Source: Candidatus Alloscybalousia sp. (GTDB taxonomy: Bacteria > Bacillota_I > Bacilli_A > RF39 > UBA660). From it: a stretch of DNA of 64,000 bases. The first letter of the stretch is position 1. Every line of letters begins with the position of its first letter. The notes beneath the pieces are model-generated. The model was not told the origin of the DNA. It ran no database searches and worked only from the letters and a program-made list of their open reading frames with translations. Both the position numbers and the translations under genes were made by a program. The stretch is from contig JAZOBJ010000035.1 of assembly GCA_045595895.1 (NCBI GenBank), positions 25,277 to 89,276 on the forward strand. Reading direction: 5' to 3'. Shown one piece after another: positions 7,242 through 57,627 of this stretch.

Positions 7242-7949
7242 CTATTTCAAAATTGATTCTAAAGCTATTTTAATCATTGTGTGGAAAGAATTTTGTCTTT
7301 CTTCGCTAGTTGTTTCTTGTTTTGTCACTAAACTATCTGATACTGTTAAAATACATGTAGCTTTTTTATTTAAACTTTTAGCATTTGTGAATAAAGCAAA
7401 TGTTTCCATTTCTACTCCAAGTACGTTGTATTTATTAACTAATTCTTGATAATTATTATTTTCTTTATAAAAAACATCACTACAATGAATTATTCCATTT
7501 TTTGTATCTACATTTAAATCATTAGCTGCGCTAATTAATTTTTTATTTAATTCTTCACTACTATAAATGATATTATCTTCTAAATTCATTTGTTCTTTAG
7601 CATAATTGGATACTGAATATGAACCTTCTACGATAATTGTATCATATAAATTCAATTTTTCTTTATATGCACCACAAGTCCCTACTCTAATTATTTCTTC
7701 TACATCATAAAATTTAAATAATTCATAAGAATAAATTCCCATACTTGGATTACCCATACCTGATGCAAAAATAGTTACTTCCTTTCCTTTATAAGTTCCA
7801 GTATAGGCTAGAATATTTCTAACTTGATTTACTAATTTATAATTTTCTAAATAAGTTTCTGCTATCATTTTGGCTCTTAGAGGATCTCCAGGCATTAAAA
7901 CGATTTTAGCTATATCTTCTTTTTTTGCTTCAATATGTGCTGTTGCCAT
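7242..7949 (-). CDS. deoD: Purine nucleoside phosphorylase, DeoD type
   Basis: MATAHIEAKKEDIAKIVLMPGDPLRAKMIAE...GMGNPSMGIYSYEL...IIRVGTCGAY matches the PNP/UDP family-1 signatures. Confidence 0.85.
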   Translation of the reverse strand: MATAHIEAKKEDIAKIVLMPGDPLRAKMIAETYLENYKLVNQVRNILAYTGTYKGKEVTIFASGMGNPSMGIYSYELFKFYDVEEIIRVGTCGAYKEKLNLYDTIIVEGSYSVSNYAKEQMNLEDNIIYSSEELNKKLISAANDLNVDTKNGIIHCSDVFYKENNNYQELVNKYNVLGVEMETFALFTNAKSLNKKATCILTVSDSLVTKQETTSEERQNSFHTMIKIALESILK

Positions 7950-29274: not shown

Positions 29275-29766
29275 TTATTTAATAAAAACAGTTATAGGCC
29301 CTCGCTCATTTACATATTTGCTTACTACTTTATACCCATCTTTTAAAATATTTCTTATTGAATATATGTTATCAGAATGTGCCTTTGTAAACATATGTGT
29401 TTTTCCTATGCTTTTTGCATATTGATTCAATATATTCATCATATCTTTCTGTAATCCATTACCAATATATTCTATTCTAACCATTATTGGTCCTAAACTT
29501 CCTGTGACGGATTCATCATATTCTATATTATATTTTCTTAACGTTTGATTTGAAGTCGGAATATAAAACATTGAACATACCGGGGTGTCATTATCGTAGT
29601 ATATCCATATTTTACCGCCTATTTTCAGAATGTCCTCTATTTCATTTTTTGTGAAAGTTCCCAACCATTCTGGGTGTTCCATATTTTCTCTAACATAATT
29701 ATATAAAAATAGGTATTCATCTATGTTAATGTTATTGCTAATCTCTTTAAAATCAGTTAATTTCAT
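29275..29766 (-). CDS. Putative GNAT-family acetyltransferase
   Basis: VRIEYIGNGLQKDMMNILNQYAKSIG resembles GNAT motif A (Q/RxxGxG/A). 163 aa. Confidence 0.4.
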   Translation of the reverse strand: MKLTDFKEISNNINIDEYLFLYNYVRENMEHPEWLGTFTKNEIEDILKIGGKIWIYYDNDTPVCSMFYIPTSNQTLRKYNIEYDESVTGSLGPIMVRIEYIGNGLQKDMMNILNQYAKSIGKTHMFTKAHSDNIYSIRNILKDGYKVVSKYVNERGPITVFIK

Positions 29767-29794
29767 AATATCACATCCTATATTGATTATATCA

Positions 29795-29995: not shown

Positions 29996-30955
29996 TTATT
30001 TATTATATTTTTTATAAAGTAATCTTTTCTCATAATTCGCCTTAGGTAATGGTTTATCATAATAATATCCTTGAATAATGTCACAATTAATACTTTTTAA
30101 ATAATTTAATTGATCCTCATTTTCTATTCCTTCGCATATTACTGTTTTACCTAGTTTTTTCATCATATCTATAGTCGATGATAAAATAATTCTGCCATTT
30201 TCAGTATTATATTTATCAACAAATGATTTATCCATTTTTATAATATCGAATGGCACTTGTAATAATAATTCTAATGAAGAATATCCCTTACCATAATCAT
30301 CTATTGATACTTTAATACCATATAGATGTAAAATTTCTACAAATTTATTAATTATTGTATAATCTTCAAGCGTTCCTGCTTCAGTAAATTCTATTTCAAT
30401 ATATTTGGTATCAATACCATAGCTAAAGATTGTACTAATAATTCTTTTAATAAAACTAAAATCTTCTTTTTGATCTATAAAATGATATCTTGAAAAATTA
30501 ATTGATACAGTTACTGGCTCAATTCCTTTTTCTAATTGTTCTTTAATATCTTTACATACTTTATTTAATATATAAAAATCTAATTCGCATACATATCCAT
30601 ATTGTTCTAATATTGGAATGAATTTATTAGGCGGCAAAATTTTTCCATCATTAGTAAACCACCTAGATAATGCTTCTGATGAACATATAGTGTTATTACT
30701 TATATCTACTTTAGGTTGATAATATGGTTCTATTTTTCTATCATTTAAATCTGCAAAAAAAGTTTTTTGTACTAATCTAGATAACTCTATTTTTTCTTTT
30801 ATTTCTTCAGCTAGTTCATCAACATTTACATTATTTATATTTAAGCGTGGAGAAATATCTGAAAATAATTTATTCAATTCCATAATCAAATCATTAATAT
30901 TAATATAATCATTTTCAAATTTTTGAAAAATTAATTTTAATAAATCATTATACAT
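29996..30955 (-). CDS. EAL-domain c-di-GMP phosphodiesterase
   Basis: EALSRW (EALxR), DDYGKGYSS (DDFGTGYSS) and KMDKSFV (KxDxxF) motifs. 319 aa, cytoplasmic. Confidence 0.85.
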   Translation of the reverse strand: MYNDLLKLIFQKFENDYININDLIMELNKLFSDISPRLNINNVNVDELAEEIKEKIELSRLVQKTFFADLNDRKIEPYYQPKVDISNNTICSSEALSRWFTNDGKILPPNKFIPILEQYGYVCELDFYILNKVCKDIKEQLEKGIEPVTVSINFSRYHFIDQKEDFSFIKRIISTIFSYGIDTKYIEIEFTEAGTLEDYTIINKFVEILHLYGIKVSIDDYGKGYSSLELLLQVPFDIIKMDKSFVDKYNTENGRIILSSTIDMMKKLGKTVICEGIENEDQLNYLKSINCDIIQGYYYDKPLPKANYEKRLLYKKYNK

Positions 30956-30966
30956 ACGTCGACCGC

Positions 30967-32810
30967 CTATCTTACTTTTTTCTTTTGTTTGGCAGCATAC
31001 ATATCTTTATCGGCTATATCAATAAGTTTTAAAAGTGATAAATCATTTTCATTATCTATTGCAATAATTCCTATACTAGCATTTAATCTAAATGGCGAAT
31101 ATTCAAAATAATTACTTTCATTTAATTCATCAATAAAATCATTTAATTCTTTAACAAAATTTTCAGCATCTTCTTTAGTGGCATTTGCCCCAAAAATTAC
31201 AAATTCATCGCCTCCAAATCTCATCATTAAATAATTATATTTTTGGTTTATATGTGTTAATGCGTTAGCATAATCACTTATAAAAACATCTCCATACTTA
31301 TGTCCTAAACTATCATTTATATATTTTAATCCATCTAAATCAGCAAAGATCAAAAACATTGGTTCATTTAAATATTTAGAACGTGCATATATTTTATCAG
31401 CTTTATCAAAGAATCCTTTTCTATTAAACAGTTTAGTAAGAGTATCATGACTACTTACTTCTTCTAACTCTTTATACATTTGTTTCATTTTCTTATAAGT
31501 ATTAATAGCTTCTAATGAATTAGCTATATTATTAATAAAAGTTCTAAATAATTCATTGTATAATGGTCCCATATAATTATTTGTTATTACATAACCATAA
31601 TAATTGTTTAAATAATGTAGCGGAATTATTATAGAAAAATTACCTGGTTCTGTGTTTTTTAATTCAGGCATAATATCTTTTTTATCAATTGTTTCATTAA
31701 TACACATATCATCTTCTAATACATAATGTAATGGTACAGTTAATTCAGTATTTCCAATATTCTCATCAATGCACATACAAAATTCAGTTACTTTAAATTT
31801 TTTTAAATATTTTGGTATTAAAGCAATTAATTTTTCAATTGAATCAGCTGCAACAAATTCTGACGCCGAATCATTTATAAACTTTGAATATTTTAAATGT
31901 TCAATATTTTCTATTGCATAATTTTTATATTTTTGCATTAACTCGCTATCATCCAACTCTTGATAATTTATACAACAACTTTTTCTAAATTTTGGTATAG
32001 CTTTTACTATTTCATCTTCAGCTACTTCGTTTTTTGATAACGCTAATAATTTATTAAATGCTATTAATCCAATATAATCTTCCTGTCTTTCCACTGATGT
32101 TATACTTGGTAAATTATATTTTGCTTGAGCGATATCATCAAATCCAGTCAATAAACAATCGTCTGGTATTTTATAACCTAATTTTGTTAATTCATTATAA
32201 GCACCTAAAGCCATTTGATCATTTGCACATATGTACACATCAGCATCCAATAAATTTTTACTTTGAAAATAATCTATTGCACAACTTCCACTATCAGCTA
32301 AAAAATCTCCATAATAAATTCTATTTTCATCTAATTCTATATTATTTTCTTCTAATATTTTCTTACAGCCATATAATCTTTTTTGAGTATCTGAACTGTT
32401 AATAGGCCCACCAATAAAATTAACCTTTTTTACGTTATGTACTTTTATTAGATGATCCATAATTTCTATCATTGCATAATAATTATCAGTTGAAATATTA
32501 GTACCAATTTTTATATCATAATCTATACTAACTATATTTTTGTTAAACGTTCTAATTTTTTCAATTAATCTTTCTCTTAATTCTTGACTGTAAATTGTTT
32601 CGGAATATAGAATAAATCCATCATATGAATCCATATCAATCCTATTAATATATTCAAATTCACCTTGGTTGTAACTTACTTCATCGGAACTAAAAAATGA
32701 AAATATATTAAAATCAATATTATGCTTTTTGCATTCTTCATATATACTTAATATAACTTTTCTTTGCGTATCTAGATGAATTTGTCCTAAAAACATTGCA
32801 ATTTTTTTCA
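30967..32810 (-). CDS. Sensor diguanylate cyclase: periplasmic-binding-protein (LacI/PBP type 1)-like ligand-binding domain fused to GGDEF
   Basis: Start set at MKKIAMFLGQ (GGGGGGAA RBS). The N-terminal about 300 aa resembles a sugar-binding PBP1 fold (..ANDQMALGAYNELTKLGYKIPDDCLLTGFDD). C-terminal RFGGDEFVIF. Confidence 0.7.
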
Positions 32811-33003
32811 TGATATTCCCCCCCGTTAAAAACTTTTCGATTACTTTATCACATTTCTCAAAAAAAATCAATAAAAAAGGATTAAGCAAAAGCTTAACCT
32901 TTTAATTATTTATTTATTTTCTTGAACTACAGCTTGTACCACAGTTTAGTTCGGGATGCCATAATATAAATTTAAGTTAGATGACTTTTTTTACATCTAA
33001 ATG

Positions 33004-33303
33004 TTAATCACTAATTCTTACGTTAACCCCATCTATATTTTTATATACACGTTTTTCGTTTTTAGAAACCTTTTTTTCAATTTCGTCTGCTAAATCAAAA
33101 CCTAGCATTTCAGATAATCCCATTAAGTAAATAGCAATATCAGCTAATTCTTCATTCAAATCATCTTTTTTCTTTTTCCAAGCATCATATGCTTCAGACA
33201 CTTCCCCATACAGTAAACAAAATTCTTTATTTACATCTGTTGTATTAAATCCTTTGTTTAATTTATTTTGCCAAATATCTTTTTGAATCTTTTTTAATTC
33301 CAT
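33004..33303 (-). CDS. MazG-like all-alpha NTP pyrophosphohydrolase domain protein
   Basis: Start at MELKKIQ (AAGGAGG 6 nt upstream). CLLYGEVSEAYDAWKK...LNEELADIAIYLMGLSEMLGFDL carries the EExxE/D metal-binding helix pattern of MazG/YpjD-type enzymes. Confidence 0.55.
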   Translation of the reverse strand: MELKKIQKDIWQNKLNKGFNTTDVNKEFCLLYGEVSEAYDAWKKKKDDLNEELADIAIYLMGLSEMLGFDLADEIEKKVSKNEKRVYKNIDGVNVRISD

Positions 33304-34852
33304 GTTTTTCCTCCTTAAATTCATTGTAATATTCTATTACCTTATTAACATTATACTCTAAAAATTTATTTAATTCAATCTCACTAAGCGTTTTATCGTT
33401 AACAATAGTATATACTGGAATAATTCGTTCATCAACTAATAAATATCCAAAAGTTTCACCCATTTTTGTATATTCAAATATGTCTTTTGAGTATACATTG
33501 TTCATAGTATCATCAGAAACATAATGCCCACCATTCTCAAATCTTATTCTGTTTCTATTTTTTCTTGTTTCTAAACTAGAAACTAAATTAACAATAATAC
33601 AATTGTCACTATTTTGCAAATCGTTTATAAAACTTTTTATACTACGAAAATATGCATTTTCAGAAAATTCTAATTCGTATAACTGATCCCTGCCTCTTGA
33701 AAATTGAATTATATTATGTGTTTCTGAATTTACAACTGCCATTTGAATTATATAATCCCATAGAATAGGTCTTATTATATCGTGTCCATCTCCCAGCTTT
33801 GCTGGTTTAGTATAGTGACTGATTGAATTTATATTATCATTATACTCTTCCCATATTTTATTAATATATCTAAGTTCATTTTTAATTTTTTTAAATTCCT
33901 CTATTTTATTTTGATATAGTAAATCATCTAGCATAAACGTTTCTAATAATGGCGCTAAATCATCTATATCTGAATATATATTATAGTAGTTTTTAAAATA
34001 ATCAATAAATGTTGTTTTTCCAGCACAAGAATTACCTATAACAATAATATTATTAGGAAGTAATTTTGATTTGGTAGTATTATCTATACATGATTGTATA
34101 GATAATAAAGGTCCTATATTTTCTATAGATTTGCTAGAATTATAAATTCCTTGTGAAATAGACTCATCTATATCTTGAGTAATTATATATTTTGATAAGA
34201 ATCCACCAATAAAAGAATCTCCAGCACCAGTAGTAGATTTAATATTATTGTTGTTCGTCACATTATAACTAATTGTATTAGTTGGCGTTATTGCAATGAC
34301 AGGCTTGTTTTCATTTGTTACTATTACTAACGGTATATCTTTTACATATTTTTTTATTATATTGTACTCATTAATATTACAAAATAAGATTTCTATTTTT
34401 GAAGCATATTTTTCTATTATAGGTATAAAATCTACAACACTATGTATCATTACATCTATCGAAAGATGATTATAATTCAATAATTTATTTTCTAAAATTC
34501 TTTGGACATCTACACCTTTTCTTAATGATATATGTAAATGATTGACAGCTATTTTTGTTTCTAATTTAATTATATCTGTATTATAAAATTGTGATTCACA
34601 AGTGGCTTTTGATTCATCAATTATAAACTCTGTCATCCTATCAACGATAGTTCCATAAAACTCTATTTGCTTTTCTTTTAATAGTAAACGTGTATCACTA
34701 TCCACTTTACTTATTATTGCGATTCTACCATCATAAGAAGTTCTCGAAGAAAAGCTCGAATATATACAACTTCCTCCTAATGTATTGTAAATTCCGTTAT
34801 TTACAATGATTTTATCATTGGAAGAATTACCTACATAACATAAATCAATCAT
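33263..34852 (-). CDS. Fusion protein: N-terminal PfkB-family (ribokinase/nucleoside kinase-like) domain plus C-terminal P-loop NTPase/kinase domain
   Basis: PfkB signature NIKSTTGAGDSFIGGFLS at about residue 200. Walker A IIVIGNSCAGKTTFIDYF at about residue 265, followed by an about 250-aa kinase-like region (FSRGRD). Confidence 0.55.
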   Translation of the reverse strand: MIDLCYVGNSSNDKIIVNNGIYNTLGGSCIYSSFSSRTSYDGRIAIISKVDSDTRLLLKEKQIEFYGTIVDRMTEFIIDESKATCESQFYNTDIIKLETKIAVNHLHISLRKGVDVQRILENKLLNYNHLSIDVMIHSVVDFIPIIEKYASKIEILFCNINEYNIIKKYVKDIPLVIVTNENKPVIAITPTNTISYNVTNNNNIKSTTGAGDSFIGGFLSKYIITQDIDESISQGIYNSSKSIENIGPLLSIQSCIDNTTKSKLLPNNIIVIGNSCAGKTTFIDYFKNYYNIYSDIDDLAPLLETFMLDDLLYQNKIEEFKKIKNELRYINKIWEEYNDNINSISHYTKPAKLGDGHDIIRPILWDYIIQMAVVNSETHNIIQFSRGRDQLYELEFSENAYFRSIKSFINDLQNSDNCIIVNLVSSLETRKNRNRIRFENGGHYVSDDTMNNVYSKDIFEYTKMGETFGYLLVDERIIPVYTIVNDKTLSEIELNKFLEYNVNKVIEYYNEFKEEKHGIKKDSKRYLAK

Positions 34853-35346
34853 TTTCTCACCAATTTCTTTACTTGACTTCTAACTTGTTCAATATTTGCT
34901 TCATGAGTATTTATAGCAATTACATCTATAAATTTAGAAGAATATTCCATAATTTCATCATATTTTTTATTTAATTCTTCATAATGATTTGCAATAACTT
35001 CATAATCACTTTTTTCATCATTTCTTCTTTTTAATAAAACATCTTTAGGAGCTGTTAAATAAATAATTTTAGCTCCAGCATTTTTATATGCAACTAATAG
35101 TTTTGTGTAATCTTCAAGGCTTAATTTACATTTATTCCTTATAACCGGTCCATAAACCATTTCACTAATAAATGATCTATCTAGCACCAATTCACTATCA
35201 TCTTCTAATAAAACTTTCATGTATTTTGAGAATAAATCCATGTTTTTTGAATCATAATCAAAATGATATTTTTTCATTCCATAACTTTGTAAATGTTCAA
35301 CTAAAGTTGTTTTACCTACACCATCTATACCTTCTATTATTAACAT
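34849..35346 (-). CDS. Thymidylate-kinase-like small P-loop (d)NMP kinase
   Basis: MLIIEGIDGVGKTT matches the Tmk EGxDGxGKST P-loop. About 165 aa, with a lid-like region. Confidence 0.55.
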   Translation of the reverse strand: MLIIEGIDGVGKTTLVEHLQSYGMKKYHFDYDSKNMDLFSKYMKVLLEDDSELVLDRSFISEMVYGPVIRNKCKLSLEDYTKLLVAYKNAGAKIIYLTAPKDVLLKRRNDEKSDYEVIANHYEELNKKYDEIMEYSSKFIDVIAINTHEANIEQVRSQVKKLVRK

Positions 35347-35366
35347 TAGAATTCCCCCTTTAACTA

Positions 35367-36128
35367 TTATTTCCTACATTTGCATTTTACTTCAACGCAA
35401 TCTCTTAATGGACAATTTTCAGGATTATGTTTATTGCAAAAATAGCGTTTATAATAAATAAGAACTAAATGACAAAACCATGTAGCATTATCATAATTTT
35501 CTACTTTAAGTTCTTCATATCCATTTTGTTTTATTATTTCTTCCACATTATTATTCTTTACTAATACTTCTAATTCTTTTCTTAAAATATCGTGCCCTAA
35601 TGCATTTTTATATTGTTCAAATCCTAAACAAGGTAATTCTACATCCTTCATACCACTATCCACTGGTATTATACCTGAATAATATCCTCTTATGTACAAA
35701 ACACAACATTGTGCTACTTTGTAAGATGCACCACTAACATTATCAGCAATTAGTTTAATCAATTCATCATTAGATAATGTTTTTATTTCATTATCATATT
35801 TTTCTATAAAATCAATCATTGATGACAAATATTTATATCTTGTATTTGACAATCCTAATCCTTTAATTATATTAATGATTTCATCTTCCGTCATATTTTT
35901 GATTTCATCATAAGTGTAACTATTTAAATCATTTATTACTTTTCTATAACTATCTATCATATTATAAGAGATTCTAGTAGAAAGACCCGCAATCAATAAT
36001 CTTTTTCTATAATCCTCTACTTCTAGAGGCCACCATAAGTTATTATTGTGATTCTTTTTTACTGCATTTCTGACTTCTTCCTGATTACTACATATATCAA
36101 TAATCTTTTTAAATTCTTCTCTCGTCAT
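35367..36128 (-). CDS. Endonuclease III/MutY-family-like HhH-GPD DNA glycosylase with a C-terminal 4-Cys (Fe-S-like) loop
   Basis: LLIAGLSTRIS...IINIIKGLGLSN aligns with EndoIII helices. HhH-GPD segment VSGASYKVAQCCVLYIRGYYSGIIPVDSGMKDV (Lys and Asp present). C-terminal C-x7-C-x4-C-x4-C (CNKHNPENCPLRDCVEVKC). Confidence 0.5.
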   Translation of the reverse strand: MTREEFKKIIDICSNQEEVRNAVKKNHNNNLWWPLEVEDYRKRLLIAGLSTRISYNMIDSYRKVINDLNSYTYDEIKNMTEDEIINIIKGLGLSNTRYKYLSSMIDFIEKYDNEIKTLSNDELIKLIADNVSGASYKVAQCCVLYIRGYYSGIIPVDSGMKDVELPCLGFEQYKNALGHDILRKELEVLVKNNNVEEIIKQNGYEELKVENYDNATWFCHLVLIYYKRYFCNKHNPENCPLRDCVEVKCKCRK

Positions 36129-36139
36129 GCTTACCTCCT

Positions 36140-36781
36140 TTAAATATTATTGTCTCTTTTAATCTTTGCAAATAAGCTTGAATTGCTCGAAATAATTTGT
36201 GTATTCAACTTATATTCTAAGTTCTCTATTATGCCAATTGTAGGTAAATTTGTACAAGATATAATAATATTTTCGTATTCATTTAAGTAATTTTCTTTTA
36301 TTAATTTTTCTAATTCATTTATTCCATAATTAAAATAATCTGCTGTATGTAATAAATCTAAATTTATATTTTTTATAACTTTTATTCCATTATCTTCTAA
36401 CATTTTTGCTATTTCTTTTCCTAATTTATCATTATATGGTGTTATTAATAAACATTTTTTAATATTTCTTATTTTTGATTCCTCAATCAATGAAATAGTT
36501 GGATTTATTTCCTCTACTCCATTTTCTAATGCTGAAGTAGTACAAAAGAATGCATTATAATCAACATCTAAATATTCTAAGTCTTTTTTCTTATTATTTA
36601 TATCTGTAGCAAGATCTTCTAGAAACTTTATTTTATCTTCCTTATAATTTGTTTTATAATCTAGTTTAGATATATAAAATACACTTTTTCCTATATCAAA
36701 ATATCCTTTACTAAAAAGCATTTGCAATTCATATTCAACAGTCAAATTAGTTTTAGGTATTAATAATCCTATTTTTTTCAT
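36140..36781 (-). CDS. Asp/Glu/hydantoin racemase superfamily protein (maleate-isomerase/arylmalonate-decarboxylase-like fold)
   Basis: MKKIGLLIPKTNLTVEYE and IISCTNLPTIGIIENLEYKLNTQIISSNSS match the two-Cys signatures of this superfamily. Confidence 0.5.
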   Translation of the reverse strand: MKKIGLLIPKTNLTVEYELQMLFSKGYFDIGKSVFYISKLDYKTNYKEDKIKFLEDLATDINNKKKDLEYLDVDYNAFFCTTSALENGVEEINPTISLIEESKIRNIKKCLLITPYNDKLGKEIAKMLEDNGIKVIKNINLDLLHTADYFNYGINELEKLIKENYLNEYENIIISCTNLPTIGIIENLEYKLNTQIISSNSSLFAKIKRDNNI

Positions 36782-38286
36782 ATTATTTCTCCAATAATTG
36801 TTCTATTACCAATGTATCCAACTACTTTAACTTTATAAAATTCATCTAATTTTAGCTCCTTGTTTAAAATTACTACTCTTACTGGACATGTACCCATTTG
36901 TCTTAGAATTGAATCACCATCTTTATACATTTCCATTCTTAATTCGCTAATTTCTAAACCAATTGGAAAAACTTCTTTTAGCATTGGAACGATAAATTCA
37001 TTTTCTATTGTTTTACTCCAAAGATTAAATTCTTTTAAATCTTCTTCACTATAATTATCAAATTGTTCACCATAAGGAGAAGTTAATTTCCTAACAAAAA
37101 CTCTTCTTACCCAATTTCCAGAATTTAATATTTTATTAAAATTATCTAAATTATGTCTTAATGTATTTTCGTTTTGACCGTCTAATCCATAAATTATATT
37201 AATACCTGGAAGTAATTTAGGTAATCCGTTTTTTCCTCTTTCTTTCCCATATTTATTAATTATAGATATTGATTTATGAATATCATCTAAAGATCCATTT
37301 AAATTACATTTTTCTCTTATTATTGGATCAAATGATTCAATTCCAAAGGGTGTAATGTTTCCTGCTGTAGTATATTTAGCTACTAATTCAGTTATTTGCT
37401 CACCGGATTCTGTATTTACATTATGGGGACTAACATTATCAATATGTAACGTTTTAATATTTGGACAAGCACTCCAAATTCCTTTAAATAAGTTTTCTAT
37501 TTCTTCTACATTACAATTCTTATAGGCATAAAAATTTGGTTGCCTTCCTAATCTAAAATATAAGGCTCCATTAGCATATAAACTATTAATTTCATCTATA
37601 ATATCTTCTTTTTCCCTAAACTGTAATGGCAAACCTCTCATTCCTTCTATACAAAATGTACAACCAGGATTTCTATTACATCCTGTAGCAGTTTCTATCT
37701 CAATTACTAGTGGTCTTTCTATTTGTTCTAATACACTTGATGAATCAATTGCAATTTGTCTTAACTTATCATAATTTGGTTTAAACTTATTACCACTTTC
37801 TCCAATAAAATAATTATAAGTATTACCAAAAATAATATCATTAAATAAATTGCTAGGTACTGTTTTCCTAATATTTTCTCTTGTTAATTCACTTCCACCA
37901 AGAGAATAAAATAATAATTTATTAGTTTCTTTGTTACAGAAAAGATTTAATAATTTTTCTACTTCTAAAAAAGTAGGAGGTTCTGCTGAAACATATTCAT
38001 ATTTAACAAAACATCCCATTACAACATAAATATTTGTTGCATTTTTCAATATTTCTGAAACATTGTTAGCATTTTTTGTTTTATTTATTATTCTTTTATT
38101 ATATGAACTATCAAAATGTTTTTCTCCATTTGCAAAACGTAAATCATCAATTGTTAAATAATAATAGTTAACATTTTTATTTTTTAAAGCACCTGCTATA
38201 TATCTAGAATGTACACTTAAATATGGTGGTACGCCTAATCCTGATGGTTCATCCGTATAACAATCTATTATTACATCATATTTCAT
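36778..38286 (-). CDS. Radical-SAM-like protein with non-canonical CX5CX2C cluster motif, N-terminal flavodoxin/B12-like region and TRAM-like C-terminal barrel
   Basis: VIEIETATGCNRNPGCTFCIEG. C-terminal CPVRVVILNK...YKVKVVGYIGNRTIIGEII resembles a TRAM domain. Architecture echoes MiaB/RimO-type enzymes, but the sequence is highly divergent. Confidence 0.45.
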   Translation of the reverse strand: MKYDVIIDCYTDEPSGLGVPPYLSVHSRYIAGALKNKNVNYYYLTIDDLRFANGEKHFDSSYNKRIINKTKNANNVSEILKNATNIYVVMGCFVKYEYVSAEPPTFLEVEKLLNLFCNKETNKLLFYSLGGSELTRENIRKTVPSNLFNDIIFGNTYNYFIGESGNKFKPNYDKLRQIAIDSSSVLEQIERPLVIEIETATGCNRNPGCTFCIEGMRGLPLQFREKEDIIDEINSLYANGALYFRLGRQPNFYAYKNCNVEEIENLFKGIWSACPNIKTLHIDNVSPHNVNTESGEQITELVAKYTTAGNITPFGIESFDPIIREKCNLNGSLDDIHKSISIINKYGKERGKNGLPKLLPGINIIYGLDGQNENTLRHNLDNFNKILNSGNWVRRVFVRKLTSPYGEQFDNYSEEDLKEFNLWSKTIENEFIVPMLKEVFPIGLEISELRMEMYKDGDSILRQMGTCPVRVVILNKELKLDEFYKVKVVGYIGNRTIIGEII

Positions 38287-38299
38287 CTTAAATTCCTCC

Positions 38300-38794
38300 T
38301 TAATCGATTAAAGTTATAACATGAAATGGAATTACCTTTTCTTTTAGTTCTGATAGCGCCAAAAATAATATATCATGTGTATCATCAATTAGAATAGCTA
38401 ATTCACATTCGTTCGAATCTAATTTTTCTCTTATTTTATCAATTTTTATTTTCTTTCTAGATTCAAAGTTTTGTGATAAAACAAAAATTTTATTTTTTTC
38501 TTTAATATATGGCATATATTTGTCAAGCCACAAACTTTTTTCCTCTGCTTGTTCTTTATATAAGCATGAACTTAATATAAACATTTCACAATCTATTTCA
38601 TCATTAATCCTTTGTAAATTATTTATTGTAGTATATATAGGTCTCTTATTTAAATATAGTCCAGGTTTATTGTTCTTTATATTTTCTCCTTCTCCAAACC
38701 TGTAATCTGCTATTACTCCATCCATATCTACAAAAATAGAAATTTTCTTAGAATTGTTTTTTATTATTTTTTTTATTTCTTCTAACAAATACAT
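38300..38794 (-). CDS. HAD-superfamily 5'(3')-deoxyribonucleotidase-like (NT5C/YorS family)
   Basis: Motif I ISIFVDMDGVIADY (DxDGV) near the N-terminus, typical of the NT5C family. 164 aa. Confidence 0.55.
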   Translation of the reverse strand: MYLLEEIKKIIKNNSKKISIFVDMDGVIADYRFGEGENIKNNKPGLYLNKRPIYTTINNLQRINDEIDCEMFILSSCLYKEQAEEKSLWLDKYMPYIKEKNKIFVLSQNFESRKKIKIDKIREKLDSNECELAILIDDTHDILFLALSELKEKVIPFHVITLID

Positions 38795-38850
38795 AGAATA
38801 CCTCCAATTAACTATATTATAACATAAATATGAACTTTTTTAATACTATC

Positions 38851-38880
38851 AAAAAGACCAAGATTTTGAAATCTTAGTCT
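38851..38880 (-). terminator. Rho-independent terminator of ppdK
   Basis: AGACCAAGATTT-TG-AAATCTTAGTCT hairpin followed on the minus strand by UUUUUGAUAG. Confidence 0.6.
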
Positions 38881-39014
38881 AATTTATATGTATATATCTA
38901 TTATCATAGGTTCTTTTAACCTAACATTTTTTAATTCTGGTATTTTATCAGAATACCTTTTAACATCATCATTTGTAATGATTAAGCGTGTTAAGAACAG
39001 GTCGTTTTCGCGGA

Positions 39015-41645
39015 CTAATTGTTCTCCTTTTCGCGTATAACCGCTTGAGCAGCAGCTAAACGAGCAAGTGGTACTCTGAATGGGCTACAAGATACATAAG
39101 TAAGTCCTAGTTTGTGACAGAATTCAACACTTGATGGTTCACCACCGTGTTCACCACAGATACCAAGTTTGATATCAGGTCTTACACTTCTACCTTTTTC
39201 AACTGCAATTTTCATAAGTTCACCAACACCTTCTTGGTCAACTTTAGCAAATGGATCACTTTCGAAAATAGCTTTTGAATAGTAATCTTCTAAGAATTTA
39301 CCAGCATCATCTCTTGAGAATCCATAAGTCATTTGAGTTAAATCGTTAGTTCCAAATGAGAAGAATTCAGCTTCTTCAGCAATTTTATCTGCAGTAAGTG
39401 CAGCTCTTGGGATTTCAATCATTGTTCCTACATGGTATTTTAATTCAACACCACTATTTTTAATAATTTCGTCAGCTGTTTCAACTACTACATTTTTAAC
39501 ATACTTAAGTTCGTTAATATCTCCTATTAATGGAATCATGATTTCAGGAGTAACATTTAATCCTTCCTTATTTACATTAATTGCAGCTTCAATAACAGCA
39601 CGAGTTTGCATTTTAGCTATTTCTGGATAAGTTACAGCTAAACGGCATCCACGATGTCCCATCATTGGGTTAAATTCTTTTAATGATTCAACACGTGCTT
39701 TTAAGGCTTCAAATGTCATACCTAAACTTTCTGCTAAAGGTTTAATTTCTTCATCAGTGTGAGGTAAAAATTCATGTAGAGGTGGATCTAAGAAACGAAT
39801 AGTAACTCCATATCCTTCCATAGCTCTAAATAATCCTTCAAAGTCATCTCTTTGATAAGGTAAGATTTTTTCTAAAGCTTCTTCTCTAGCTTCTAGAGTT
39901 TCAGCTGTAATCATACGTCTGAAGTTGAAAATTCTATCAGCTTCAAAGAACATGTGTTCAGTACGGCAAAGACCGATTCCTTCAGCTCCAAATTTTCTAG
40001 CTTGAATAGCATCTTTTGGAGAATCAGCATTTGTTCTTACTTTTAGAGTACGAATTGCATCTGCCCAAGACATAAATGTTTCGAAATCTCCTGAAATTGA
40101 TGGTTCTACAGTTTTAACTTGGCAACCATATACATTACCAGTTGAACCATCTAAACTCATCCAATCACCTTCACGGTAAACATTACCATTTGGTGCAGTT
40201 ACTGTTTTGTTTTCTTCATCTATTTTTAATGAACCACATCCAGATACACAGCAAGTACCCATTCCACGTGCAACAACAGCAGCATGTGATGTCATACCTC
40301 CACGGATAGTTAAGATACCATGTGCAATATTCATTCCTTCAATATCTTCTGGACTAGTTTCAAGACGAACTAATAAGATATCTTTTTCTCCAGCTTCTTT
40401 AGCTTTAATAACATCTTCAGCTGTGAAATATATTTTACCTGTAGCAGCTCCTGGAGATGCAGCAAGTCCTTTAGCAATTACTTCACTAGCTTTTAAAGAT
40501 TCAGTATCAAAGTTAGGATGTAATAATTGGTCTAATTGTTTAGGCTCTACCTTAAGAATTGCTTCTTCTTTAGTTAACATTCCTTCGTTTACTAAATCAA
40601 CTGCGATTTTAAGTGCAGCAGCAGCAGTTCTTTTACCATTTCTAGTTTGTAGCATGAATAATTTACCATCTTCAATAGTAAATTCCATATCTTGCATATC
40701 TTTATAATGGTTTTCTAGAATATCACAAATTTTAACAAATTCATTATAACATTCAGGCATAGTTTCTCTTAATGTTTCAATTGATTGTGGTGTACGAATA
40801 CCAGCAACAACGTCTTCACCTTGAGCGTTCATTAAGTATTCACCGAATAATTTCTTTTCTCCTGTAGCAGGATTACGAGTAAATGCAACACCTGTACCAG
40901 ATGTCTCTCCACGGTTACCATATACCATTTCTTGAACGTTAACTGCAGTTCCCCAACTAGATGGAATATCATTTAATCTTCTATATGTGATAGCACGGTC
41001 ATTATTCCAGCTTCTAAATACAGCTTTGATTGCTTCCATTAATTGAACTTTTGGTTCTTGTGGGAAATCTACTCCTGCATGTTTTTTATATTCTTCTTTA
41101 TAGATATTAACTACTTCCATTAGATCTTCAGCAGTTAATTCTGTATCAAATTCAACATTTTTTTCTTCTTTGATTTTATCAAATAATCTTTCAAATGAGC
41201 TTTTTGGGAATCCCATAACTACATCTGCAAACATTTGAATAAATCTACGGTAAGAATCGTATACAAATCTTGGATTATTTGTAACTTCACTAAATCCCTT
41301 AGCTACTTCATCATTTAAACCTAAGTTTAATACAGTATCCATCATACCTGGCATTGAAGCTCTTGCACCACTTCTTACAGATACTAATAATGGATTTTTG
41401 TTATCACCAAATGTTTTACCAGTGATTTGTTGTAATTCATTAATTTTTTCTTCAATTTCATTTATGATTTCTGGTGCTATATCTTTACCATCCTCATAAT
41501 ATCTAGTACATGCTTCTGTTGTAACAGTAAATCCTCTTGGTACTGGTAAACCAATACTAGTCATTTCTGCTAGGTTAGCACCTTTACCTCCAAGAAGGTT
41601 ACGCATGTCCTTATTTCCTTCACTAAACAAGTAAACGTATTTCAT
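39015..41645 (-). CDS. ppdK: Pyruvate, phosphate dikinase
   Basis: 876 aa. N-terminal MKYVYLFSEGNKDMRNLLGGKGANLAEMTSIGLPVPRGF, central phospho-His domain, C-terminal PEP/pyruvate-binding TIM domain. Confidence 0.95.
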   Translation of the reverse strand: MKYVYLFSEGNKDMRNLLGGKGANLAEMTSIGLPVPRGFTVTTEACTRYYEDGKDIAPEIINEIEEKINELQQITGKTFGDNKNPLLVSVRSGARASMPGMMDTVLNLGLNDEVAKGFSEVTNNPRFVYDSYRRFIQMFADVVMGFPKSSFERLFDKIKEEKNVEFDTELTAEDLMEVVNIYKEEYKKHAGVDFPQEPKVQLMEAIKAVFRSWNNDRAITYRRLNDIPSSWGTAVNVQEMVYGNRGETSGTGVAFTRNPATGEKKLFGEYLMNAQGEDVVAGIRTPQSIETLRETMPECYNEFVKICDILENHYKDMQDMEFTIEDGKLFMLQTRNGKRTAAAALKIAVDLVNEGMLTKEEAILKVEPKQLDQLLHPNFDTESLKASEVIAKGLAASPGAATGKIYFTAEDVIKAKEAGEKDILLVRLETSPEDIEGMNIAHGILTIRGGMTSHAAVVARGMGTCCVSGCGSLKIDEENKTVTAPNGNVYREGDWMSLDGSTGNVYGCQVKTVEPSISGDFETFMSWADAIRTLKVRTNADSPKDAIQARKFGAEGIGLCRTEHMFFEADRIFNFRRMITAETLEAREEALEKILPYQRDDFEGLFRAMEGYGVTIRFLDPPLHEFLPHTDEEIKPLAESLGMTFEALKARVESLKEFNPMMGHRGCRLAVTYPEIAKMQTRAVIEAAINVNKEGLNVTPEIMIPLIGDINELKYVKNVVVETADEIIKNSGVELKYHVGTMIEIPRAALTADKIAEEAEFFSFGTNDLTQMTYGFSRDDAGKFLEDYYSKAIFESDPFAKVDQEGVGELMKIAVEKGRSVRPDIKLGICGEHGGEPSSVEFCHKLGLTYVSCSPFRVPLARLAAAQAVIREKENN

Positions 41646-41750
41646 ATCATCATCCCTTCCGCATTTTTACCTGCATTCCTAGTATAGCAAAAAAAAATGT
41701 CTAAAACAATTTAAAATGCTTGATTTTACTGTTTTTTGACATTTATTTTA

Positions 41751-43867: not shown

Positions 43868-44488
43868 TTACTTTAAATTATTTAAAATTTGTTTATATTT
43901 TTTATTTACTTCATTAAAGTCAATTAGTTTTAAGAAATTATTTATATAATCTTTTCTATTATTTCGATAATCTAAGTAATATGCATGTTCCCAAACATCA
44001 ATATTTAAAATTGGAATCATTCCAAAACTATATGGACTATCTTGATTAGGTAAATCTAATAGATATAATTCTTTACTAGGTTTTACTACTAAGAAGGTAT
44101 AACCTGATCCTGGTAATAACGATGCCAGACTAATGAATTGATTAACAAAATCAGTAATACTACCAAATTTTTCTATTAAAGCACTATTTAATGGTTCAGG
44201 AATTATACCATTACCATTAGGCGTCATACTATCAAAATATAGTTCATGATTTACTACTCCACCAGCATTAAATAATATTTCATCTCTATCTTTAATAGGA
44301 AATATATCAATGTTTTTAAATAAATTCTCAACTGAATACTGAAATTTAAAATTATTCTTTATTAATACATCATTTAAATTTTTTAGATATTTTAGATAAT
44401 GACTATTGTAATGTGTTTCAAGTGTTACTCTACTGATATTTGGCTCTAAAGCATTATAATCATATTTTAAGATATATGGTTCATACAT
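43868..44488 (-). CDS. sodA: Fe/Mn superoxide dismutase
   Basis: DVWEHAYYLDYRNNRKDYI C-terminal signature and N-terminal His ligands. Confidence 0.9.
   Translation of the reverse strand: MYEPYILKYDYNALEPNISRVTLETHYNSHYLKYLKNLNDVLIKNNFKFQYSVENLFKNIDIFPIKDRDEILFNAGGVVNHELYFDSMTPNGNGIIPEPLNSALIEKFGSITDFVNQFISLASLLPGSGYTFLVVKPSKELYLLDLPNQDSPYSFGMIPILNIDVWEHAYYLDYRNNRKDYINNFLKLIDFNEVNKKYKQILNNLK

Positions 44489-57550: not shown

Positions 57551-57627
<77 letters not shown>

Follow-up and report, generated by a model that had tools for sequence, protein, structure and literature searches.

A COG1031 radical SAM enzyme encoded in a horizontally exchanged cassette of nucleotide-related genes in uncultured gut Bacilli

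A compact run of seven genes, all read in one direction and served by a promoter of their own, lies on the minus strand of a 64,000-nucleotide stretch of DNA from Candidatus Alloscybalousia sp. (contig JAZOBJ010000035.1; the whole stretch is referred to here as the window, and positions are counted from its first letter). The second of these genes, at positions 36778-38286, is the subject of this report. It starts with ATG, comprises an open reading frame (ORF) of 502 codons with a strong AAGGAGG ribosome-binding site 5′ of it, and its stop shares the four nucleotides ATGA with the start of the next gene. From this ORF, a match to Pfam PF04055, an AlphaFold model and structural comparison by Foldseek, the product of 502 amino acids (aa) was assigned as a radical S-adenosylmethionine (SAM) enzyme of the bacterial/DPANN clade of COG1031. 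In the following, we describe the protein, its family and the operon around it, and then weigh what such an enzyme might do in the company of nucleotide kinases, a pyrophosphatase, a nucleotidase and a DNA-glycosylase-like protein.

The initial annotation of the gene had pointed to a sole cysteine triad with radical SAM spacing, CX5CX2C. Indeed, among the 10 Cys of the protein the only C-x(2-14)-C-x2-C pattern is C203-NRNPG-C209-TF-C212, the cluster-binding motif, encoded at 37651-37680 on the minus strand. Two alignments were used to follow it through the family, one (A1) of 28 relatives with 41-84% identity and another (A4) of 14 relatives farther away, the lowest at 25% identity. C203, C209 and C212 are invariant in all members of both (28/28 in A1, 14/14 in A4), so the triad cannot be put down to chance. 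The spacing between the first and second Cys ranges from 4 to 7 across the family, as opposed to the canonical CX3CX2C, and the expanded cluster loop is therefore a family trait and not a quirk of one gene. Pfam PF04055 (Radical_SAM) matches residues 198-377 with 35.3 bits against a gathering score of 29.5. With this score above threshold, the invariant triad and the partial TIM-barrel fold described below, the proposal of a radical SAM enzyme stands, and the product of 36778-38286 is a genuine member of this class from the uncharacterised COG1031 family. Since just three Cys are invariant family-wide, it is predicted to be a single-cluster enzyme whose one [4Fe-4S] cluster would be held by the expanded CX5CX2C loop.

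An AlphaFold2 model built on alignment A1 (mean predicted local distance difference test score, pLDDT, 92.5; predicted template-modelling score, pTM, 0.92) divides the protein into three domains, all encoded on the minus strand. The N-terminal Rossmann/flavodoxin-like domain (aa 1-190, positions 37717-38286), delimited by model secondary structure and conservation, consists of a five-stranded beta/alpha domain at residues 3-160 and a linker helix at 172-188, in agreement with the flavodoxin/B12-like region of about 200 aa that had been proposed for this part; it carries the invariant motif D8-C9-x2-D12-E13-P14-S15-x2-G18 as well as invariant H26, D48 and R50. In the radical SAM partial TIM-barrel core (aa 191-440, positions 36967-37716), defined by PF04055 and by profile alignment to MiaB (7mjv) and MgmA (9ccb), the first barrel strand at 194-198 is followed directly by the Cys loop and then by a helix at 213-217, as in radical SAM enzymes, so the expected position of the triad on a barrel loop is confirmed in the model; further core motifs are LGRQPNFY, which aligns to GQNVNSY of MiaB, and GIESFD. 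The C-terminal domain (aa 441-502, positions 36781-36966) is a small beta-barrel with invariant R462, whose five strands between residues 445 and 501 account for the beta-rich tail of about 60 aa noticed before. A profile of the N-terminal domain (aa 39-126) matches archaeal 5′-methylthioadenosine (MTA) phosphorylases weakly (1v4n, E = 0.0019; 2a8y, E = 0.013), in the segment that forms the base/ribose-binding part of those enzymes; this likeness may be a chance beta-alpha-beta similarity or may hint at a nucleoside-binding pocket.

In Foldseek searches against the PDB the model reached probability 1.0 to many radical SAM structures. The top matches are the methylthiotransferases (MTTases) MtaB (9a6d), MiaB (7mjv-7mjz) and RimO (4jc0), with E from 5e-17 to 1e-14 and alignments of more than 500 columns at template-modelling (TM) scores of 0.65-0.71 normalised to target, followed by MgmA (9ccb), AprD4, CysS and OxsB, while HydE/BioB-type folds rank far lower. 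The family sequence profile likewise finds MiaB and MgmA in the PDB at E of about 3e-6, around the cluster loop and the LGRQPNFY segment. From the full-length structural matches and the MiaB/MgmA profile match, we therefore consider the body plan to be of the methylthiotransferase type. The tail had also been called TRAM-like. Its isolated domain matched no Pfam family, with neither TRAM nor UPF0004 appearing even at E = 10, and no TRAM-containing PDB chain by profile, and neither UPF0004 (PF00919), which had been suggested as a check, nor TRAM (PF01938) matched the whole protein in Pfam, hence the term is valid for position and fold only. The only PDB match of the barrel profile is a marginal one to the SH3-like domain of uL2 (PEGT..V..E....G...R..G.Y; E = 0.08).

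Relatives of the protein are numerous: a word-index search returned 1445, an exhaustive profile search 573 representatives at 50% identity (155 of them below 1e-30), and a scan of one genome per GTDB species 306 loci. The close relatives belong to uncultured gut Bacilli/“Tenericutes” (RF39-type), and farther ones to Patescibacteria, Gastranaerophilales, gut Alphaproteobacteria, Rickettsiales, Chloroflexi and many DPANN archaea, with the caution that taxonomic labels of metagenome-assembled genomes may be unreliable, as in the case of a “Dojkabacteria” protein at 75% identity to a Bacilli protein. An archaeal sister group of 540-600 aa shares the same core and an N-terminal DxYxDEPxxLGVPPY motif (profile matches of about 300 bits, A4) and carries an additional C-terminal helix-hairpin-helix (HhH) region (Pfam HHH); one homologue, P0095, is named at its source [quoted passage not shown] N-terminal domain, core and barrel are homologous between the archaeal COG1031 proteins and that of the window, and the expanded spacing of the first two Cys is theirs as well, whereas the window protein ends at its barrel (residue 502) without an HhH tail and has the clade-specific C9 and C467 and a conserved operon. 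By descent it is a COG1031 member minus the HhH tail. No curated NCBIfam model (June 2026) covers the family, the searchable literature holds no description of the COG1031/HhH radical SAM family or of the combination of families in the operon, and no conserved neighbours were found for the archaeal HhH-type homologues.

Downstream of the PPDK terminator, the operon has a TATAAT at 38816-38821 and a ribosome-binding site at 38801-38805, and an Rfam scan of the window and five loci at gathering thresholds returned tRNAs only, with no riboswitch upstream of the operon (the single tRNA found in the window lies at 57551-57624 on the plus strand). Its first gene (38300-38794, as all the following on the minus strand) encodes a HAD-superfamily 5′-(deoxy)nucleotidase-like protein (NT5C) with a DMDGV motif (PF06941, 35 bits against 24.8) and is conserved adjoining the radical SAM gene. 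Downstream of the latter stands the gene of a maleate cis-trans isomerase-like two-thiol enzyme of the Asp/Glu racemase superfamily (36140-36781), matched over its full length by profile to 4fq7 (E = 1.4e-17); both catalytic Cys, C80 and C176, are invariant (alignment A3), and the gene is present at 27/28 bacterial loci. The next product is an HhH-GPD (endonuclease III-like) protein (35367-36128), assigned from alignment A2 and Foldseek. Its K137 and D157 are invariant in A2 and stand at the positions of the catalytic Lys and Asp of EndoIII; the model, from a shallower alignment, is of moderate confidence (pLDDT 79), and its top Foldseek matches are EndoIII, MagIII, Mig, MutY and Ogg. A phage-type amino-acid:DNA transferase was considered for this protein and rejected, with no aGPT-Pplase match in Pfam and no such transferase in the top 50 Foldseek matches.

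The remaining three genes encode kinases and a pyrophosphatase. A thymidylate-kinase (dTMPK)-like (deoxy)nucleoside monophosphate kinase (34849-35346) is recognised by the Pfam families dNK/Thymidylate_kin, by TIGR00041 (E = 6e-9) and by PHROG 761, thymidylate kinase (E = 9e-22). It also matches the PADLOC model “VakA” (PDLC02911) over the full length (E = 4e-7), an accession numbered close to the pVip models PDLC02903-02905; the name, untraceable in the literature, may stand for viperin-associated kinase. The gene at 33263-34852 encodes a PfkB nucleoside-kinase-like domain (aa 1 to about 260) fused to a P-loop kinase (aa about 265-529), as seen by profile comparison with the PDB; the PfkB profile is matched best by 3kd6 and the nucleoside kinase of M. 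jannaschii (2c49), then by adenosine kinases, and the P-loop kinase half forms a separate gene in other lineages. The last gene (33004-33324) encodes an all-alpha MazG-like nucleoside triphosphate (NTP) pyrophosphatase (PF12643/PF03819; PHROG pyrophosphatase, E = 5e-14). The longest version of its ORF shares 62 nt with the end of the PfkB-kinase gene (33263-33324), and since a gene of 99 aa is called at homologous loci, the true start is probably the internal ATG at 33303 (MELKK...).

Sampling of bacterial lineages found the radical SAM gene surrounded by this operon in at least 28 of them, with radical SAM identities of 41-96%. A minimal core, found at locus L092, comprises the radical SAM enzyme, the isomerase-like enzyme, the HhH-GPD protein, the dTMPK-like kinase and PfkB, and the variable members are the P-loop kinase, the HAD nucleotidase, MazG or Ham1, a QueC-like enzyme, a ThyA-fold protein and a nucleotidyltransferase, the last added at L091. 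A Ham1/ITPase gene stands in for MazG in the alphaproteobacterial and Gastranaerophilales versions. Several partners are joined into single proteins: HhH-GPD is fused to the deoxynucleoside monophosphate kinase (dNMPK) at L045, L047, L054, L090 and L092, and other fusions are dNMPK-HAD, dNMPK-PfkB (L057) and PfkB-P-loop. The ThyA-fold gene of L054 (12574-13317) overlaps the end of the PfkB gene and has PST where ThyA has its catalytic PCH, which suggests that the protein may be a nucleotide-binding or Cys-independent variant. QueC-like PP-loop enzymes occur within the operon at L090 (9302-10075) and nearby at L044 (4136-5320), the latter beside a BpsA-type polyamine synthase-like gene, and hint at an amidated carboxylate intermediate or a 7-deazapurine. 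A conserved protein of 105-116 aa opens the alphaproteobacterial and Gastranaerophilales operons before Ham1 (L005 5532-5867 and seven further loci) and has no match in Pfam or NCBIfam.

The whole operon with its own promoter and 3′ end (32901-38887, minus strand) is 93-95% identical in nucleotide sequence to L007-L012 and L036, whereas the flanking PPDK gene (38871-41658) is just 70-82% identical to the same loci and the downstream flank differs; at L001, which encodes a radical SAM protein with 84% identity, the operon is found at another chromosomal site. Because the identity of the operon is far above that of PPDK, and because the site at L001 differs, the operon moves as a cassette. Genomes that are rather divergent have swapped it at one and the same position in the chromosome, and the radical SAM enzyme is its constant member, travelling as a unit with the rest. 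No convincing terminal repeats were found at the cassette ends. On the 3′ side of the cassette in the window, a GGDEF protein of 640 aa, whose N-terminal part is periplasmic-binding-like, and an EAL protein of 319 aa are encoded at 29996-32889; these cyclic-di-GMP genes look like a lineage-specific insertion, since the gene at 29276-29773 directly abuts the cassette in L008. At L001-L003 (4742-7392) an HTH-WYL regulator stands directly upstream of the operon, together with an extra PfkB-family protein of 661 aa. The window as a whole has about 26% GC, a steadily negative GC skew and all but a handful of its long ORFs on the minus strand, and further genes in it code for a DeoD-type purine nucleoside phosphorylase (7242-7949) and for an Fe/Mn superoxide dismutase (43868-44488).

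At more distantly related loci the cassette is found in the company of mobile and anti-virus genes. L090 lies on a sequence resembling an integrative and conjugative element (ICE), with a relaxase, RadC, a TraG-like protein and a complete type I restriction-modification (R-M) system; L091 has a restriction-endonuclease domain and AbiH near the cassette, L092 has Mrr and L045 has RhuM/Bro, and at L054 the ThyA-fold gene is followed by an HTH/ImmA pair and then by a SAVED-SMODS pair of the cyclic-oligonucleotide-based antiphage signalling system (CBASS). Furthermore, at two DPANN loci (L093 8427-11326, L055 509-5018) the homologue shares an operon with a viperin-family gene (NF038283, E = 3.5e-23; PADLOC pVip, 1e-30), to which L093 adds an HD phosphohydrolase and L055 a protein of 724 aa with a swivel domain of the PEP-synthase/rifampin-phosphotransferase type. 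Such tandem radical SAM enzymes with phosphotransfer enzymes may represent a new variant of viperin systems. When 145 ORFs beside the gene in 30 loci were scanned with PADLOC, models for pVip, type I methyltransferase, mad2/mad3/mad8, AriA, HamB-like and PDC-M23B matched at E <= 1e-5.

The enzyme is thus encoded by the signature gene of an exchanged set of nucleotide-handling genes, often beside anti-virus genes, and for this reason it probably makes or alters an unusual building block of DNA or RNA; the nucleic-acid- or nucleotide-directed role considered in the initial annotation fits this gene context. More specifically, we propose that it acts on a nucleoside phosphate by radical chemistry, as part of a mobile nucleotide-modification system of the conflict type, a reading to which we give a probability of about one half. 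In such a scheme the kinases would phosphorylate a nucleoside, and the reduced cluster would cleave SAM to yield a 5′-deoxyadenosyl radical that takes a hydrogen from the sugar or the base. In maleate isomerase-like enzymes a Cys thiolate attacks an activated C=C bond and is later eliminated, and by a comparable polar addition and elimination the two-thiol partner could finish the transformation. The NTP pyrophosphatase, the nucleotidase and the glycosylase-like protein would then decide which nucleotide reaches DNA or stays in it. The product would be a non-canonical nucleotide that either modifies the cell's own DNA or, like the products of viperin, poisons virus replication. Phage base-replacement pathways follow the same logic, as do defence modules that combine viperin with a kinase.

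Several points weigh against this proposal. The putative substrate is deduced from gene neighbours. Salvage and sanitation explain the kinases, the pyrophosphatase, the nucleotidase and the glycosylase equally well, the MTTase-like fold, the small barrel and the archaeal HhH tail also suit a polymer substrate of RNA or DNA, and the N-terminal domain may bind cobalamin. The immediate neighbours of the cassette in the window and in most copies of gut Bacilli and Alphaproteobacteria are housekeeping genes, and most DPANN homologues showed no conserved neighbours. The PADLOC count of defence neighbours was made without a formal background control, and its helicase/ATPase models also match housekeeping genes; no component model of PADLOC v2 matches the radical SAM protein itself (E <= 0.1). 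A phage origin was rejected as well, since neither IMG/VR nor a set of 50,697 phage records contained a relative. In PHROG, the radical SAM, isomerase-like and PfkB proteins had no match.

Housekeeping nucleoside salvage and pool sanitation in salvage-dependent organisms with reduced genomes could also account for the operon, and we regard this as a doubtful explanation. Here the radical SAM and two-thiol enzymes would repair or convert a damaged or modified (deoxy)nucleoside, the kinases would re-phosphorylate it, and MazG/Ham1, the nucleotidase and the EndoIII-like glycosylase would clear the non-canonical form from the pool and from DNA. The hosts, namely gut RF39-type Bacilli, the candidate phyla radiation (CPR), Gastranaerophilales, gut Alphaproteobacteria, Rickettsiales and DPANN, suit such an economy, and so do the housekeeping genes beside the window copy. 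MazG and Ham1 are classical house-cleaning families, the EndoIII-like protein retains its catalytic Lys and Asp, PfkB resembles nucleoside kinases, the window contributes a DeoD-type phosphorylase, and several loci have housekeeping or DNA-repair neighbours (MutS, Fpg, UvrD, RecA, UDG). However, the cassette is horizontally exchanged, copies of it sit on an ICE-like element and in R-M, CBASS, Abi and viperin contexts, and tailoring genes restricted to particular lineages (QueC-like, ThyA-fold, nucleotidyltransferase) are found more typically in modification pathways. A substrate within a polymer, being a nucleotide of tRNA or rRNA, or of replicated DNA from which the HhH-GPD protein would flip the base, is unlikely. 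The kinases would in this case phosphorylate a base substituent, as do 5-hydroxymethyluracil (5-hmU) DNA kinases, and a phage radical SAM enzyme and kinases acting on DNA offer a precedent (PMC8989533). The three-domain fold of MTTase type, whose barrel takes the place of TRAM, the HhH DNA-binding motifs of the archaeal relatives and a partner of DNA-glycosylase fold that is fused to a kinase all speak for it, but PfkB is nearest to kinases of free nucleosides, the NTP pyrophosphatase, the nucleotidase and the dTMPK-like enzymes use free nucleotides, no TRAM signal exists in the sequence, and the top 50 structural matches of the HhH-GPD protein are of the EndoIII type and include no amino-acid:DNA transferase. 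Replacement of ribonucleotide reductase by radical 2′-deoxygenation was a further candidate and was rejected: L045 has a full NrdD two genes away from the operon, and the glycosylase and the isomerase would be left unexplained.

Likelihood falls from a polymer-directed enzyme to a B12-dependent methylase and further to a true MTTase. A cobalamin-dependent (class B) radical SAM methyltransferase that C-methylates a nucleotide, its N-terminal domain binding B12 as in MgmA, is improbable. MgmA (9ccb) is both the best sequence match in the PDB and a strong structural one, CysS and OxsB are also among the structural matches, and relatives weakly match the “B12-binding domain/radical SAM” models TIGR04013 and TIGR04014 (E from 1e-9 to 3e-17), though with scores far under the cut-offs. 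On the other side, there is no Pfam match to the B12-binding domain (PF02310), MTTases match better over the full length than B12 enzymes, the invariant N-terminal motif is acidic (D8, D12, E13, D48) and not a known cobalamin motif, and the reduced-genome hosts are unlikely to synthesise B12. What MgmA, the class B enzymes and OxsB, whose substrate is deoxyadenosine phosphates, share with the window protein is a Rossmann-like N-terminal domain and a radical SAM core, whereas its C-terminal domain differs from theirs and its B12-binding profile match is missing. A highly divergent true MTTase, the leading idea of the initial annotation, is very improbable, and membership in these enzymes was rejected. 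The layout of Rossmann-like N-terminal domain, radical SAM barrel and C-terminal small beta-barrel, the full-length fold match and common core motifs (GQNxN-like, GxES) do link the protein to MiaB, MtaB and RimO, so that the MiaB/RimO likeness holds for the fold. The NCBIfam MTTase models (TIGR00089, TIGR01574, TIGR01578, TIGR01579, TIGR01125) reach 12-24 bits against cut-offs of 251-357, and those of the MiaB family, among them TIGR00089/TIGR01578, align weakly, one reaching the C-terminus; the family scores thus lie about ten times below the cut-offs.

The auxiliary cluster of MTTases carries the sulfur, and C9 and C92 of our protein come after strands 1 and 3 of the N-terminal domain, presumably at sites like those of the first and third auxiliary-cluster Cys of MiaB. 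Within the bacterial clade, however, C9 is present in 28/28 sequences and C92 in 22/28, being absent in 6/28, the middle ligand position is an Asp (T45-I-D47-D48-L-R50), and in the family at large Gly predominates at position 9 and position 92 varies. The N-terminal three-Cys auxiliary site that was to be looked for by alignment is therefore not there: only C9 is invariant in the clade, and with no second conserved three-Cys set an obligatory auxiliary cluster is absent; the MTTases have such a three-Cys site, and their cluster loop is CX3CX2C where that of the window protein is CX5CX2C. Moreover, the gene sits in a nucleotide-kinase operon without a link to tRNA or the ribosome and not among translation genes. 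We know of no chemistry assigned to radical SAM enzymes that have the MTTase body plan but lack the auxiliary cluster. The CX5CX2C motif had also been likened to that of HmdB, which we take to have the same spacing. HmdB is a BioB/HydE-like single-domain protein of different architecture, and no HmdB-type model appeared among the NCBIfam matches at E <= 0.1; the shared motif is convergent and coincidental, five being one value within the 4-7 of the family, and the likeness is not upheld.

Returning to the proposed radical step on a nucleoside phosphate, the cassette, which is not in PADLOC v2, the phage collections or the searchable literature, may represent a new pathway. Its strongest form, a cellular pathway that brings a non-canonical deoxynucleotide into the organism's own DNA (or, closely related, makes an antiviral analogue unlike the 3′-deoxy-3′,4′-didehydro nucleoside triphosphates, ddhNTPs, of viperins), is tentative, a possibility we would not yet favour. 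It would be the chromosomal counterpart of base hypermodification in phages, spread horizontally among uncultured gut Bacilli, CPR and others, and the radical SAM enzyme would modify anaerobically where other systems employ folate- or oxygen-dependent enzymes. To judge by the searchable literature, this is the first link between COG1031 and a defined, portable set of nucleotide genes, and the function of the family is testable by expressing the 6-kb cassette. Should the product prove to be a DNA base modification or an antiviral nucleotide, new chemistry would enter the conflicts of bacteria and archaea with viruses. Abundant gut and candidate-phyla organisms that are uncultured would then be flagged as carrying an unrecognised modification of their DNA, which would bear on long-read sequencing and on the discovery of nucleoside analogues.

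Three further known systems invite comparison. One is TIGR03916, a “putative DNA modification/repair radical SAM protein,” which resembles the present case as an HhH radical SAM protein paired with a DNA-glycosylase-family protein. The HhH tail of one archaeal COG1031 relative matches it weakly (E = 1e-4), but the match is confined to the HhH region, the window protein itself gives none, and the glycosylase partner there is of the UDG family and here HhH-GPD. Prokaryotic viperins (pVip) likewise pair a radical SAM enzyme with nucleotide kinases, in mobile settings and defence islands, and the DPANN homologues share an operon with a viperin-family gene. The window enzyme, for which no PADLOC pVip or NCBIfam viperin match was obtained, is nevertheless homologous to viperin in the radical SAM core only, has an additional N-terminal domain and barrel, and is accompanied by, among others, a two-thiol isomerase-like enzyme and a glycosylase-fold protein. 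Finally, thymidine hypermodification in phages by the 5-hydroxymethyldeoxyuridine (5-hmdU) route employs a dNMP kinase and a P-loop base kinase, together with a dTTPase and a dTMPase, and, besides a radical SAM enzyme, a transferase of glycosylase fold (Lee et al., 2021; PMC8989533). The cassette differs from it in being cellular, with no homologue in the phage or IMG/VR collections, in having no aGPT-Pplase or 5-HMUDK match in Pfam, and in a radical SAM enzyme of a different family, and its ThyA-fold gene is rare and lacks the catalytic Cys. Yet both draw on an equivalent toolbox of enzymes with variable tailoring enzymes, to which one cassette lineage (L054) adds the ThyA-fold gene.

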